Below the pieces are notes generated by a model that ran no database searches, was not told where the DNA came from, and saw only the letters and a list, made by a program, of their open reading frames with translations. This document shows positions 2,210 through 9,083 of a stretch of 27,624 bases of DNA, one piece after another. The number at the start of each line of letters is the position of its first letter. Position 1 is the first letter of the stretch. A program made the translations under genes and the position numbers. The stretch is from IMG/VR virus record IMGVR_UViG_2565956708_000008, one strand, 5' to 3'. This DNA comes from a virus. Taxonomy: Duplodnaviria > Heunggongvirae > Uroviricota > Caudoviricetes.

Positions 2210-2573
2210 GCTAAAACTTTCGTTCAGGAAACTCTGAATGATACCTGAGAGTCTACTGAAGAGTTGTTTGTTCACTAGTTAGCACGTAGGAAATCATTCA
2301 ATACTCGCACTATCGGAAGTTCACCAGCCAGTCGTAGCACGTCCTTGCAAACGACGTGCCTACGGTTTCAATCACCTCTCACCATCAATTCTATCAATAA
2401 TAATTAAACAGCGCCTAGACAAAATAAATAACAACAAGTCAACAACCTCGACAGGATGCCGATGGGATGATGAAGAGATAAGAAAGAATAACCAGTAAAG
2501 CCCTAAAACGTCAGCGTTCAGACGCGTTTTTTACTTAATCGGTAACAAATACGTTGTATCATAGCAAAATAAA

Positions 2574-4523
2574 ATGATTGTTCTAAATCAGATTAACTCC
2601 TCACTTTTGTACAATGTCGCTTACAGGTATACCATGAAATCCGAGACGCTAACTGTCCAACAACTTTTTCAAGACCGCCGACAATACTGTGTTCCATTCT
2701 ATCAACGTGCCTATGTATGGACTCAGCAAGACCAGTGGTCAGCTCTACTGGAGGATATCCTAGAGAAAGTACAATCCCGGCTCTCGGGTACAAAACCAAC
2801 TCCCCATTTCCTTGGTGCGGTTGTACTGGAACCTCAATCAAAAAAAGGATTATTAGGTGTAGATTCCATACATATTATTGATGGTCAGCAACGATTGACC
2901 ACTCTTCAATATGTTCTGGCATCCATCCGATTAGCATTACGTGCTACGGATCTTTCCAGCTTAGAGGCTCTCATTTCGCCTTGCCTGAAAAACTCAAACG
3001 AAGACACAATGCGAAATAAAGAAGTAGAACGCTTCAAACTGTGGCCAACTTTTCGGGATCAAACTCATTTTATTCAAAGTTTTAATGTTGAAAATATTGA
3101 CGATCTCCGGGACGTATTCTCTGATAGTTTCACGCAGCATGGTACGTTGCGTAAGCATTTTAATCACCCGCCATCACTAGAAGCATTATGTTTTTTTACT
3201 GAAGCCTTTATAAAATGGATTAAAATAGAAAACCACTCACCACAAGAAAATGCTGTAGCTCTAATTGAGGCTGTCTTAACAGATCTGAAACTGGTAAGCA
3301 TATTTCTCGAAGCTGAAGATGATGCCCAAATAATTTTTGAAACATTAAATGGGCGAGGGGCGGAACTTCATGCTACGGATCTTATTCGCAACTATATCTT
3401 TATGTGCGCTGAGCATGAAAATATTAATGCTATTGAATTATATGAAAATGAGTGGAAGAGCTTTGAAGATAAATACTGGTCGGAAAAACAACGCCGTGGA
3501 CGTATTAATAAACCACGCATGGAGTGGCTAGTACATGCGACATTGCAATCAGAAAGGCAACGTGAAATTGATCTGTCTCGCCTTTACAATGAGTATCGTG
3601 ATTATGTAAGTAAGGACTTGTCTTCACAACGAGCAGATCTGCAAGTAAAGCGCCTCAAACAATATGCATCACAATATAAAGAATTGGTTGATGGTTTTGG
3701 CACAACCCCCATCTCACACTTTGGATATCGCATCGCAGACTATGATGTGACGACACTTTATCCGCTTGCTTTGTTCATTTCGATAGCTAACATCGCTGAT
3801 GATGAGAAAGCAGCCATGTATAATGATCTTGTCTCCTACGTAGTACGAAGAGCCGTATGTGGCCTGACGCCAAAGAATTACAACAATGTATTTATGAATG
3901 TATTGCGGCACTTGGCTAAAACGGAAATTTCCAGTGTTGAGTTACGTAATATCCTCAATAACTTAAATGGCGAAGCCTCACGTTGGCCTGGTGACTCAGA
4001 ATTTCTCAACGCTTGCATCAATGCTCCACTTTATCCTGGCAGGCTCGACGCACCGAAAATGCGCTCAATGTTAACGGAACTTGAAAGAGAACTTTGTCGC
4101 CAAGTAAAGACAGAAAAGCCTGATGTTCCAAATCTTTCTAATCTCGATATCGATCATCTTATGCCTCAAAGTTGGTATTCCTGTTGGCCTCTCGAAAATG
4201 GTCGTATGGTGACAAATTCAGATGCTACGGTATTGAACCAAATTGTTCTGTCTGGAACCGATCTTACCCCTGAACAGCTACTGGTAAGGAAACGGCAACA
4301 AGCGATATCTACTTTGGGAAATCTAACTTTGCTTAACCTTAGCGTAAACCGTTCTGTTCAGAATGCTGTATTTCTGAAAAAACGTGATGCTCTCATCGTC
4401 CACACCAATCTACGACTGAACATTCCACTTATAGTTAAGGATAAATGGGATGAGGATGAAATCCTGGAGCGGGGTAAAAAGTTGGGGGAAATTGCATTGA
4501 AAGTATGGCCAAAACACGATTAA
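2574..4523 (+). CDS. GmrSD-like type IV restriction / defence protein (N-terminal DUF262 domain, C-terminal DUF1524 His-Me finger nuclease domain)
   Basis: N-terminal FYQRAYVWT and IIDGQQRLTTLQYVL (DGQQR signature of DUF262). C-terminal DIDHLMPQSW with downstream LGNLTLLNLSVNRSVQN. The start is more likely the internal ATG at 2634 (MKSETLTVQQLF...), which has an AGG 9 nt upstream. Confidence 0.8.
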   Translation: MIVLNQINSSLLYNVAYRYTMKSETLTVQQLFQDRRQYCVPFYQRAYVWTQQDQWSALLEDILEKVQSRLSGTKPTPHFLGAVVLEPQSKKGLLGVDSIHIIDGQQRLTTLQYVLASIRLALRATDLSSLEALISPCLKNSNEDTMRNKEVERFKLWPTFRDQTHFIQSFNVENIDDLRDVFSDSFTQHGTLRKHFNHPPSLEALCFFTEAFIKWIKIENHSPQENAVALIEAVLTDLKLVSIFLEAEDDAQIIFETLNGRGAELHATDLIRNYIFMCAEHENINAIELYENEWKSFEDKYWSEKQRRGRINKPRMEWLVHATLQSERQREIDLSRLYNEYRDYVSKDLSSQRADLQVKRLKQYASQYKELVDGFGTTPISHFGYRIADYDVTTLYPLALFISIANIADDEKAAMYNDLVSYVVRRAVCGLTPKNYNNVFMNVLRHLAKTEISSVELRNILNNLNGEASRWPGDSEFLNACINAPLYPGRLDAPKMRSMLTELERELCRQVKTEKPDVPNLSNLDIDHLMPQSWYSCWPLENGRMVTNSDATVLNQIVLSGTDLTPEQLLVRKRQQAISTLGNLTLLNLSVNRSVQNAVFLKKRDALIVHTNLRLNIPLIVKDKWDEDEILERGKKLGEIALKVWPKHD

Positions 4524-4547
4524 TGCAATTAATAAAATGATTATAGT

Positions 4548-4567
4548 GGCCTTACATTAGTAAGGCC
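4548..4567 (+). terminator. hairpin downstream of the GmrSD-like gene, possible terminator
   Basis: Stem GGCCTTAC / GTAAGGCC with loop ATTA; no clear T-run follows, so this is weak. Confidence 0.3.
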
Positions 4568-5644
4568 GCTACTCACTATTAAATACTTTAATTTGCATCA
4601 AGAACAGCAGTGTCAGCCCTAGGTCTCGGACTTTGTACCGCTTATCTTGTCTTCAAAAATCAGCTCGCATCCTGCACAGTTCAGCGCATTACGTTGTAGA
4701 TCTGTGTTCTGGTCATTTGTTGACACACGTACATAGCCAATAAGCATGGTAGATCTCCCTGACAAAAGCAGGAATGATGCCATTTGCTCGTTATTTCTGC
4801 ATTTTCATAAACGTTGGTTTGGGAGAAGGGGCAGCATGGCCTGTTGGTGAGGCTGAACAACAACCTCCAGACACGTCGCCCTCAAGCGGTCCTGGATGCA
4901 ACGGTAATGTTGTTATTGCTGAAGCTGACGCGGTACTGACACAGGTTGATACGGCAAATATATGCCCCGCATTACGTGTTAAGGGAATTCGTGGCAATGA
5001 TGATGCGCTCAGCGTTTCTAAAAAGTCTGATATGCCGTCAGCAAAAGAGCCATTTGTAGTTCCTATTTATGTGCTGGTAGCTATCATCCCGGTATCTTTG
5101 ACCGCTTAAGGTGGTGAATCTAGCGATACAGCAGGTTCTGGCTCGACCACTGTTAGCATTTCTGCCACTGTCGGTGGTAACAAGACCGTGGCGTGTACAG
5201 TGGCCGATACACTGATCGATACCTTTCCTTCAGACATCGCCTTTAACTCGATCGTGAGAGCAGGATAATGGATAACGCAGTATTAAATAGTGGCGTAAGT
5301 ACAAGTATTTCACTGCATAAAATGTTTTCTGAATATGATGGTGCAACAAGGGTTCATGTTGCCACTATAAGAGAATCTCGTGCCACTGGTGAGGGATTTC
5401 CGGCATTGCCTCCTCAGGGGAAACAAGTTGTACCTAAGGGTTCTGAACCTATATGATGGACTAATAATCCAACTCCTTCAAAATAGGTGGAAGAGCAGAG
5501 GGCTGAAATGAACTAAAAAACTTTAGCGTCAGAATCAAAAAACATCACCAAAACCCATGAGTACCCCGGCAATACAACCACTAGTCCCCTAATAAGCGAA
5601 TAACTTACGTAGGATGATTCGTGGCTGGAGTATCAGGCCGAAGT

Positions 5645-5916
5645 GCAGCAGAGCGACACTGTCTGTGCGGCAGAAGTACAGCGTCCGTCGCTTATTGATG
5701 CTCCGGTCAGATGCAATGCTCTGCTTTAGCGGAAATTGTTGGCGTGACCGCGGCAATGGCATGCAGAAAAGAGCTAACTCAACTCTTTTCTGCCTGCAAC
5801 TGATGCGGTCAGGGCAACAATTACAACTGAAGCGGAGGGAGGGATCTGACCGCAACTTCAAGCAGCGTATGACGCTCTATTTCTGCCGCACATGCTGTGT
5901 CGACATGCTCTGCTGC
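5645..5916. repeat. long imperfect palindrome of about 270 bp, two roughly 75 percent complementary arms around a perfect central hairpin
   Basis: GCAGCAGAGC at 5645..5654 is the reverse complement of 5907..5916, and the arms share blocks such as TGTGCGGCAGAA and GGTCAGAT. The central hairpin at 5763..5793 is GCAGAAAAGAG, loop CTAACTCAA, then CTCTTTTCTGC. Confidence 0.6.
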
Positions 5917-6287
5917 GTCCTGAGACACCAACTACGAATTATACTATGCAACGTCTTCGCTTTTTAGGCGAACAGTAGCTGTTTTTTCGGGCCACTGATC
6001 CGTTTTTGTGAATTTATTGAATTCTGAAACTACAGTGATTTTTACGATTTCACCCGTAAGCACCGCCACATCTTTCGAAGGAGGTAAGTTAACAGACCGT
6101 CAGGGACGTCAACCACCCTCAGCTCCAACTGCTGCCCCTAGTGGGTAAAAAGCCAGAAATCCATCACATGCTTCTATGTTTACATCAATAATGTCAACAG
6201 GAAGCCTTCTCGCACCATCATAGTCTTGAAACATTATTTGCAGAGCATATGTTTTAATACGTCGACAAATTAATACTGAGTTCACTA

Positions 6288-6485
6288 TTACCGTGCAATG
6301 ACGAAATATTTAACTGCAGTGTTTCGTGGAAGGGTTTCGATGAGGTGTTTGTCGACTTTACCCAACATGGAATGATTCTTACCGTCGGCAACAAAAATGC
6401 AACCCGCGGTCGCGTAAATCCCTGTTGAATTACTGAATATAGCACCATAGCCGCTCGTTGATCCCAAAAGGATAGCGCCCAGCAC
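6288..6485 (-). pseudogene. tail fibre distal segment, in frame with the upstream tail fibre gene but separated from it by an amber codon
   Basis: Same frame as 6486..7031 and continues immediately after TAG at 6486..6488; encodes GSTSGYGAIFSNSTGIYATAG, typical Gly/Ser/Thr-rich fibre sequence. Confidence 0.4.
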
Positions 6486-7031
6486 CTAAATAGTACCTAC
6501 AGAGGGCAATTTTGTTGAGAGCATATAAGACTTATAATCACCGCCGCTGGCATCAGCCCAACCAGTCATTCCATCCACCGGTAATTGACCCCATATATTT
6601 GCAGGAACAGTCTGAGCCATTTGCGCGTCAGGTTGACCAATCAAAACATCTCCGTTGCCTTTCGTCAACGTTGATAACGACGTGGCAGAGATTCGTGTTT
6701 CCGGCACGCCCACAGTTCGTTTTGCGGCTTCTCCCAAACCAAGGTTTTCGAGAGCCGTTTTCACCGTGCCGTCCGATTTGATATCGCTAAACGGATTCTT
6801 GCGGCTTAACAGCAGCGCACGAAGCGCGGTAAGCAGCTGGTCGTGCCGCGCCTTCTCCAGACTGGCACCGGATGCCTCCACCACGCTGCAGAGTTCTTCC
6901 TGCAACATGTCAAAGTAGTCATCATCCAGATCGGTGGCAGGCGTGCCTGTCTGGGGGTTACCACGGGTAAAACCGTTCTTACCCGCGCCGAACTTATCCT
7001 TCTGCGCGGTTTTCGTGTCTATACGATGCAT
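6486..7031 (-). CDS. tail fibre protein, N-terminal (constant) part; apparently truncated by an in-frame TAG
   Basis: Position directly after the baseplate genes; Mu S / e14 StfP-like N-terminus ([21 protein letters not shown]...) by recollection. Confidence 0.6.
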
Positions 7032-7034
7032 GGA

Positions 7035-7619
7035 TTACTCCGGATATTTAAAAATTACGTAGGTATGCGAAGGGCAGAGTTTGTTAAGCACACATTCGAC
7101 GACGGTGTCGCCCCAGATACGCAGCGCGGAATCACAGGGATCGCCACATGTCATCCAGGTGCTGTTGGTGGCGGCTGGCATGTTGACCTGCCAGTAATAC
7201 CGCCATTCCGGCGCATTCACCGCGTCAGTACAGGCCGATGAGCAGGTGAACGTGCTTTTGTCGTATCGCGTGATGGTGGCGTCTGGTCTGCCCAGGGCAG
7301 CAAGCTGTGCAAGGTAAAAATCCTCATTGATGCCGCCCGCCAGGTTAACCTTCGCATCCAGTCGTTGCTGACGCTGGCGAAGGGTCTGTGTTCCTGCGGG
7401 AATACATTCATCCGGCAGGCCGCACAGACGCTCCCAGCGATTTATCAGTTCGGTGGTGGTGCGCGGATCCAGCTCCCGCATCAGGGCATCCGCACGCTGA
7501 TGAACGCGGGTTAATGACTGTGCCGCACCGGCAATCGCCGGATCGCTGGCTGACCACGCCGGACCGGGCGGCAGCAGTGCCGACAACAGACGGATGTAAT
7601 CATCGTTTGTCACGCCCAT
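7035..7619 (-). CDS. tail protein, Mu gp48 / YmfQ-like (DUF2313)
   Basis: 194 aa, the same length as e14 YmfQ; sits between the baseplate J-like gene and the tail fibre gene. Confidence 0.55.
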
Positions 7620-8668
7620 GAAATCGTCCCCAGAACCGCCAGTTCATTTTTTGCAATGGAGATATTTTCCGCCGGTGCAAGCAATTGATGGCTGTATTCC
7701 CCGTTCGCACCGGAAATCGCTTCACTGATACGCGACACCTTCAGTTCTCCCTGCGGATAACCATCACGCAGCAGGAACGAACGCAACTCCGCGGTGATGG
7801 CAGCCCGTATTTCCGGTGTATCCGGCGTCACACGGATATGAAAATCCACCGTATGCGCCACCGGCCTGAACACATACAAATCAGAGCCTGCCACCGGGGC
7901 CAGTGGCCCGATATGTTGTCTTGCCGCCGTTTCCGTTGATTCTTCCGGAATGGGATTAATCAGGTCACTGCTGGCAATCATCACACCGACAGTCCCCGTT
8001 CCCATCCAGTGACGGTATGCCCATGCGCGGGTAATGCCGGGCAATTCTTTAGCCCAGACAACATAGTCCCCGTCAGCCCCGCCCTGAGGCGTCCAGTAAT
8101 ACCGCTCAATGACGCGGGCGCGCCACGTTTCCAGCTCTTCAGTATCAAATCCACCTGTCAGAGTGTCTGCCACGCCGGAAGACGGCAGACCATTAACCGG
8201 CGTGACCAGGATTAATGACGTACCGTCGTCAGCGTTACCGACCGCGCCTGCACTTGAGCAGGCGATCGGCACGCGCAGGACACCACCGGCGCTGGTTGCA
8301 TCGGCAGTTGCCGTGTACTGAATCAGGTCATCGCGCTGAATAACACTCCCGGCGGTCACCTTCAGGCCATCGCTGACGCCTTCCCAGCGCATATACCCGC
8401 TGGCAGTCGTGGCCCCCTTGCGCGGACACCGTTTCATCGCAGCATGTCGCGCCAGCCAGGACTCATCGCACAGGTCAGGCAGCATGTTCATTGCCAGATA
8501 ATCGATGTACCCGTAAACCGTATGCAGCGCCGCCGCATACACCTTTGCCCGCACGTCTTCATCCATGCGCCGGAGCGTGTCGCTGACGTCCAGCCTGGCG
8601 AATAAATCGTTACGGAGCATACTGATATTTTCTGCCAGCGTCGGGCGCTGAAATTCACTGTCCGCCAT
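7610..8668 (-). CDS. baseplate J-like protein (Mu gp47-like)
   Basis: 352-aa ORF overlapping its neighbours in a translationally coupled baseplate block; size and position fit baseplate J. Confidence 0.65.
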
Positions 8669-9083
8669 GCGTTATCGCACTCCACAGATCATCTAAAGAA
8701 ATCATTACCGGTCCGTCACGACGCCAGAGAGTGATACTGTTACCCAGTTCATTAATCCCGGTGCGGAGGATATCCAGATCAATACGGGACACCACGCCGT
8801 CATCAATCATCCATTGCAGGCATTCGCGGATATACCCCCTTACCGTCTGCACCAGCTGATTGGTCAGTTTGCTGCGCTGAAGCAGCCACAGTCGGGAGCC
8901 GTAACGGTCATTCTGTACCGCAGGCCAGGTATCCCCCCACCATCCCATCGGGACGTCGGCGTTGTCATCAGGCTCCGCCCGCCGCCAGGTAAACAGGGAA
9001 ATCACCACGGCGCGGGTCAGCGGATCCAGCGGTGCGCTGGCGCAGGTGCGTTTACCGTTCACCGTCAGCCACAGTTCCATCAT
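8655..9083 (-). CDS. baseplate protein, Mu gp46-like / GPW-gp25 family
   Basis: 142 aa, between the spike-like and J-like genes; overlapping start and stop with both neighbours. Confidence 0.55.
   Translation of the reverse strand: MMELWLTVNGKRTCASAPLDPLTRAVVISLFTWRRAEPDDNADVPMGWWGDTWPAVQNDRYGSRLWLLQRSKLTNQLVQTVRGYIRECLQWMIDDGVVSRIDLDILRTGINELGNSITLWRRDGPVMISLDDLWSAITHGGQ

Follow-up and report, generated by a model that had tools for sequence, protein, structure and literature searches.

Long palindrome in an Escherichia coli prophage sequence: an almost certain consensus artefact over an invertible tail-fibre segment

An imperfect palindrome of about 270 bp, set around a perfect central hairpin, occupies positions 5645 to 5916 of a 27,624-nucleotide stretch of caudoviral DNA (IMG/VR record IMGVR_UViG_2565956708_000008), called here the window in its full length. 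It is not a non-coding RNA, a retron, a MITE or a decayed duplicate, and it is not a real feature. We hold it to be almost certain (probability of about 0.97) that the palindrome is a consensus artefact in the draft assembly of E. coli HVH 12, formed over an invertible e14-like tail-fibre segment. The direct observations behind this reading are a per-base mosaic of two orientations, its boundaries, its presence in public records, its recurrence in a second draft genome and the occurrence of both true orientations in other genomes.

The palindrome and the segment around it

The palindrome is present in the window letters as the preliminary description gave it. Its central hairpin (5763-5793) has a perfect 11-bp stem, 5763-5773 paired with 5783-5793, around a 9-nt loop; 72% of the 135 innermost mirror pairs are complementary and a perfect 10-nt pair closes the structure at its outer end (5645-5654 with 5907-5916). 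The statement that only mirror-image ORFs cross it is also borne out, these being readings of 117 aa on the + strand and 90 aa on the - strand. Neither these readings nor the short ORFs within the segment match a Pfam family, and public records do not contain the 117-aa product. The symmetry, previously followed to about 5610 and 5945, is there, but its extent had been underestimated: without gaps it spans 4829-6727 (1.9 kb) about position 5778, with 64.8% of the mirror pairs complementary. A repeat scan detects an inverted pair of 56 nt (5313-5368 and 6188-6243) whose midpoint is also 5778, and the local alignment of the left half to the reverse complement of the right half extended to the edge of the supplied sequence.

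The symmetry of 4829-6727 reaches, on both sides, exactly to crossover sites that bound an invertible segment. A search for crossover cores of the Gin/Pin/Hin type finds AAACGTTGGTTT at 4809 and AAACCAAGGTTT at 6736. These cores lie in two 26-bp sites, a pix-like left site at 4802-4827 (TTTTCATAAACGTTGGTTTGGGAGAA), and a right site at 6729-6754, which reads CTCTCGAAAACCTTGGTTTGGGAGAA on the - strand and is inverted with respect to the left one; the mosaic starts just inside the left site and stops just inside the right one. Both are equidistant from 5778, the midpoint of the palindrome. Judged from these sequence features, the palindrome sits at the exact midpoint of an invertible tail-fibre segment of the e14 type (Pin/Gin family).

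The arrangement resembles that of the e14 P segment, inverted by Pin and related to the Gin/G system of Mu, the Cin/C system of P1 and the Hin system of Salmonella. Here the two inverted 26-bp sites that bound the segment have AAACNNNNGGTTT-type, AAACC-NN-GGTTT-like cores, and a tail-fibre gene runs with its constant part over one of them. The segment holds two alternative C-terminal cassettes in opposite orientations, both accompanied by an assembly gene, an invertase gene adjoins it, and both orientations are found in nature. Unlike in e14, the invertase is reduced to N-terminal codons with a GmrSD-like gene beyond it, and the window letters are not those of the true segment.

The pin-like serine DNA invertase remnant (4619-4783, - strand) matches the Pfam Resolvase family PF00239 with E = 6.5e-9 over 54 aa. 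What adjoins the segment is this 54-codon stump and not an intact invertase gene; the identical sequence is annotated in RefSeq as "recombinase family protein, incomplete, missing C-terminus". In the Gin and Hin systems the Fis-dependent recombinational enhancer lies in the 5' part of the invertase gene, and the 165 bp retained here may hold such an enhancer.

On the other side, the constant N-terminal part of the tail-fibre gene (6755-7031, - strand) is 100% identical to E. coli genomes. The gene crosses the right crossover site into the segment, and the first 101 residues of its product are those of the tail protein of strain ATCC 11775; in the ORF list of the window it appears as an N-terminal ORF of 181 aa (6486-7031, - strand). 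The next prophage genes code for a Mu Gp48/YmfQ-like protein (7035-7619, - strand) and for baseplate J (7610-8668, - strand). Beyond the truncated invertase, the prophage end is occupied by genes for a GmrSD-like type IV restriction protein (2574-4523, + strand, PF03235 and PF07510) and, at the left prophage end, for a LEM-3-like GIY-YIG protein (809-1615, - strand). These two genes look like swapped defence cargo at the spot where e14 of K-12 carries mcrA. A single base of the GmrSD-like gene, at window position 2987, differs from ATCC 11775; it is an ordinary strain SNP, and other strains match the window at 100% across this position. A tRNA scan of the window found none.

Gene content of the segment and per-base mixing of its orientations

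The locus of E. coli ATCC 11775, offset by -2956 on both sides of the segment, serves as the reference. It has the same neighbours and is fully coding, with four genes. The "otherwise non-coding" setting attributed to the palindrome is thus a consequence of the artefact. Placed on the window, the variable C-terminal part of the 247-aa tail-fibre protein covers 6288-6754 (- strand; reference annotation 3332-4075 shifted by +2956), followed by tfaE, which codes for a 200-aa tail-fibre assembly protein (5686-6288, - strand). A second tail-fibre assembly gene, for 148 aa (5271-5714, + strand), is convergent with tfaE with a 29-bp overlap, and 4777-5268 (+ strand) holds an alternative C-terminal cassette for the tail fibre, with the annotation of a hypothetical protein of 164 aa. 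This cassette joins the constant part after inversion, and genomes with the inverted orientation annotate a "phage tail protein" there. All four genes are scrambled in the window, the cassette from 4829 onwards and tfaE with its frame kept and in-frame stops.

Their frames can still be followed. A sensitive DNA search matches the segment centre, at about 66% identity, to the place where two tail-fibre assembly genes converge in many E. coli genomes, and the four reference proteins give gap-free, single-frame tblastn alignments through the apparently non-coding region, with fibre-assembly-like frames running through both arms of the palindrome. The reference frames contain many in-frame stops in the window, of all three codons, and zero frameshifts. 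One of them, the TAG at 6486-6488, is built from a forward TAT and an inverted AAG and cuts the tail-fibre ORF to 181 aa.

The flanks at 2400-4800 and 6760-9000 match many complete B2-type E. coli genomes (among them UTI89, S88, NU14 and ATCC 11775) at 100.0% identity. Megablast of a 1,201-bp query from within the segment (5200-6400), by contrast, finds nothing among 5,426 complete E. coli genomes and 50,697 phage records. The segment is exactly as long as the reference, with no indels, and an ungapped comparison gives 100% identity before 4829 and again after 6727, the first and last positions that differ from the reference, and about 62% between them. The substitution spectrum is flat over all 12 types.

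These substitutions are fully accounted for by the inverted orientation. Without gaps, 61.9% of the segment positions agree with the reference and 66.5% with the reverse complement of the reference and, with 28.4% of the reference segment self-complementary, the identities sum to 0.619 + 0.665 - 0.284 = 1.00. Counted over the 1953 positions of 4802-6754, the base is that of the forward orientation only at 646, that of the inverted orientation only at 723, the same in both at 584 and neither at 0. The absence of any exception in the 1369 informative sites has a chance below 1e-400 for a sequence that is unrelated or no more than homologous. The lengths of runs with one choice follow a geometric distribution with a mean of 2.03, as given by a coin flip at each base, and each base-pair type splits about 50:50 with no favoured base. 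In the outer half-sites of the crossover sites the forward base is found throughout, as a true inversion at the site centres requires. Self-complementarity is 0.6475, compared with 0.650 +/- 0.013 in 5,000 simulated coin-flip mosaics. The 31-mer GCAGAAAAGAGCTAACTCAACTCTTTTCTGC is an example of a word specific to this mosaic, and the artefactual stretch as a whole (4829-6727) is a per-base forward/inverted mosaic, about 65% self-complementary around 5778.

Several other relations to the reference were rejected. A simple inversion is ruled out since megablast covers both strands and gave no match, while transforms that only reverse or only complement the reference reach 11% and 14% identity, respectively. 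Stop-codon reassignment and deaminase- or RIP-like hypermutation are ruled out by the occurrence of all three stops together with the flat 12-type spectrum, and a rule that picks the alphabetically first base is ruled out by the even split of the base-pair types.

The preliminary description had also considered a diverged tail-to-tail duplicate from an old invertible segment. Its invertible segment is there, centred on the palindrome, as are the fibre-assembly-like frames that it named as a sign of such a remnant; its duplicate is not, the reference being 28% self-complementary with different genes in its two halves. As a full alternative, a real ancient duplicate of tail-fibre and assembly genes in a frozen segment decaying to pseudogenes would agree with the assembly frames in both arms, the truncated invertase and the many in-frame stops. 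Such decay would not leave zero indels in 1.9 kb, a flat spectrum and flanks at 100% identity, nor does it account for the confinement of every base to one of two reference letters. The true segment, with its two different gene pairs, is asymmetric, and a second strain (see below) shows a different random mix. We regard this alternative as highly improbable.

The predicted fold of the palindrome is, as far as the letters go, very stable. Whichever strand is folded, region 5600-5960 forms a single long hairpin (+ strand, -192 kcal/mol, z = -12.7; - strand, -181 kcal/mol, z = -13.0; z against dinucleotide-preserving shuffles). This stability on both strands is what speaks for a long structured RNA, retron msr/msd-like or of another kind, or for cruciform-forming DNA. 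The same 361 nt of the forward reference reach -143 kcal/mol with z = -4.6 and do not form the long hairpin; the fold is the arithmetic outcome of combining a sequence with its reverse complement, and the true sequence lacks it. The sole Rfam match in 4000-7500, obtained at a permissive threshold, is at chance level (E = 0.41, a Mycobacterium sRNA model), and no reverse transcriptase was found among the neighbouring ORFs scanned. The counterpart in E. coli UMEA 3893-1 differs from the window at half of the informative sites with the same 65% symmetry, which is the mark of random mixing and not of the compensatory evolution in the arms that had been proposed as a check. A structured RNA, one of the readings first put forward, or a cruciform-forming DNA element is in our judgement extremely improbable.

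A MITE-like mobile element between convergent genes, another of these early readings, is more improbable still. The palindromic shape and the apparently non-coding setting suit such an element; yet there is no second copy in the 5,426 complete E. coli genomes or the 50,697 phage records, and the segment has the length of the reference, hence nothing was inserted. Retron msr/msd regions, long-hairpin non-coding RNAs and MITEs are like the window in one respect, the shape of a long imperfect inverted repeat. Unlike them, the window palindrome matches no family, is found in no further copies and does not stand for a real molecule.

The central hairpin at 5763-5793 is a chance run of complementary choices, one of several along the axis. 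In a three-line comparison with the two reference orientations its letters switch between forward and inverted bases. Other complementary runs of 11-15 bp occur at distances of 103-114, 434-444, 814-824 and 950-964 along the axis, and 5% of simulated mosaics have a run of at least 11 bp within 30 nt of the centre. Among the inner 250 mirror pairs (window 5528-6028), opposite orientations were chosen in 108 of 180 cases (0.60 vs 0.50 expected; p = 0.009, uncorrected and for one of four bins), whereas beyond 250 nt from 5778 opposite choices are not above chance. This excess is small and unexplained; it may reflect the way in which the consensus was made, or be noise. The reported palindrome (5645-5916) lies at the heart of the mosaic, where the symmetry is slightly higher, which is probably why only the centre had been noticed.

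Public records of the mosaic and its proposed origin

The window corresponds to the GenBank draft scaffold KI538675.1 (GCA_000494955.1), with an exact match over 12.5 kb. The truncated 181-aa "tail protein" ESP17083.1, named for E. coli HVH 12 (4-7653042), is a singleton among about 15 billion proteins and is encoded on one public contig, KI538675.1. The exact scaffold match and the singleton protein indicate that the mosaic was part of the draft when it was deposited and is not a later addition.

A homology search retrieved a second 181-aa singleton "phage tail protein", from E. coli UMEA 3893-1 (KE702650.1, GCA_000461775.1). Over the same 1953 positions this draft has the forward base at 707 informative positions, the inverted base at 662 and neither at 0, with a mosaic symmetry of 0.6465. 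Its choices agree with those of the window at 49.7% of the informative sites; the mosaic of UMEA 3893-1 is therefore independent of that of the window. That a second draft is affected suggests that the artefact arises systematically in a pipeline. Both mosaics carry the same TAG codon that ends the 181-aa ORF, an agreement with a chance of 1 in 16 if the coin flips are independent.

The complete genome of strain PA45B (NZ_CP021288.1, locus 5602-7460) has a different kind of damage at this place. Relative to the inverted-orientation reference, 94 bases are deleted and 11 are mismatched, all of them within the segment, whose genes are all annotated as frameshifted or partial, and the 500 bp to the left match the window exactly. 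In the PA45B segment, mixed orientations have probably corrupted a long-read consensus. The window resembles such collapse artefacts at phase-variable inversions, of which PA45B is the long-read example, in that the corruption lies only between the inverted repeats. Unlike in PA45B, the corruption in the window is gapless, with a clean per-base 50:50 split, and mimics a long hairpin.

In the explanation that we favour, the real locus is an invertible tail-fibre segment of about 1.9 kb in an e14-like prophage, lying between inverted 26-bp crossover sites. We infer that the sequenced culture held both orientations of this segment and that an assembly step merged the two versions, equal in length and identically flanked, into a single locus, each column taking its base from either orientation, in effect by chance. 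If any sequence is combined in this way with its reverse complement, its self-complementarity around the midpoint is necessarily about (p + (1-p)/2), where p is the fraction of columns in which the two share a base; with p of 0.28-0.30, as here, this gives about 0.65. Such mixing also produces the long imperfect hairpin, the mirror-image junk ORFs, the in-frame stops without frameshifts and the apparently non-coding DNA.

Three observations stand against this explanation. One is the small excess of opposite choices among the inner 250 mirror pairs over a pure coin flip. Another is that an ordinary alignment-based consensus of reads in opposite orientations would be expected to give indels, as in PA45B, and not a clean mosaic. 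Furthermore, the neighbouring invertase is truncated, so inversion needs an enzyme encoded elsewhere.

The HVH 12 and UMEA 3893-1 genomes are Broad Institute drafts that were presumably assembled with ALLPATHS. The ambiguity-aware output of this assembler would then have been flattened to plain FASTA. A literature search on ALLPATHS-LG "efasta" returned only a table entry naming efasta as the output of that assembler; searches for the HVH 12 assembly or its scaffold accession found nothing, and no description of a gapless per-base 50:50 mosaic signature was found in the literature searched.

The two orientations could also have come from two prophage copies in one genome, collapsed by the assembler, instead of from a mixed culture. 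Some E. coli genomes match the junction query at several places, in line with this possibility, while the flanks (GmrSD-like gene and truncated invertase) are found at a single place in most of the genomes listed. The recurrence of the artefact in a second strain and the documented inversion of this type of segment in culture (PMC4272514) argue further for a mixed culture, and we consider a two-copy collapse very unlikely. The palindrome is an artefact under a two-copy collapse too.

Inversion of the segment and significance

Both orientations exist in nature beside the same truncated invertase, in different complete genomes. The forward junction query has 100% full-length matches next to it in ATCC 11775, NU14 and MS7163, and the inverted junction query has such matches in IHE3034, APEC O1 and PMV-1. 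For K-12, clonal cultures in which the e14 segment inverts are documented (PMC4272514). Both orientations must have been in the sequenced DNA to give the mosaic, so the segment probably still inverts in HVH 12 and UMEA 3893-1; the neighbouring invertase being a stump, the inverting enzyme would act in trans.

The palindrome itself is biologically meaningless, and no such molecule is expected. The case means that draft genomes can hold fictitious stretches, free of indels, between inverted repeats, which imitate hairpin RNAs, pseudogenes with many stops or hypermutation and bring unique fake proteins, ESP17083.1 being one, into protein databases. A simple test is whether, in a segment bounded by inverted repeats, every base is that of the reference or of its reverse complement and the symmetry about the midpoint is about 65%. 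This test exposes the artefact and also flags loci that invert in culture. We lean towards the hypothesis that the segment still flips in the ExPEC strains HVH 12 and UMEA 3893-1, with a Pin-family invertase of another prophage acting in trans on the orphaned tail-fibre switch. Mosaics of a sequence with its reverse complement could, separately, be mined from draft assemblies as a read-free detector of active inversions.
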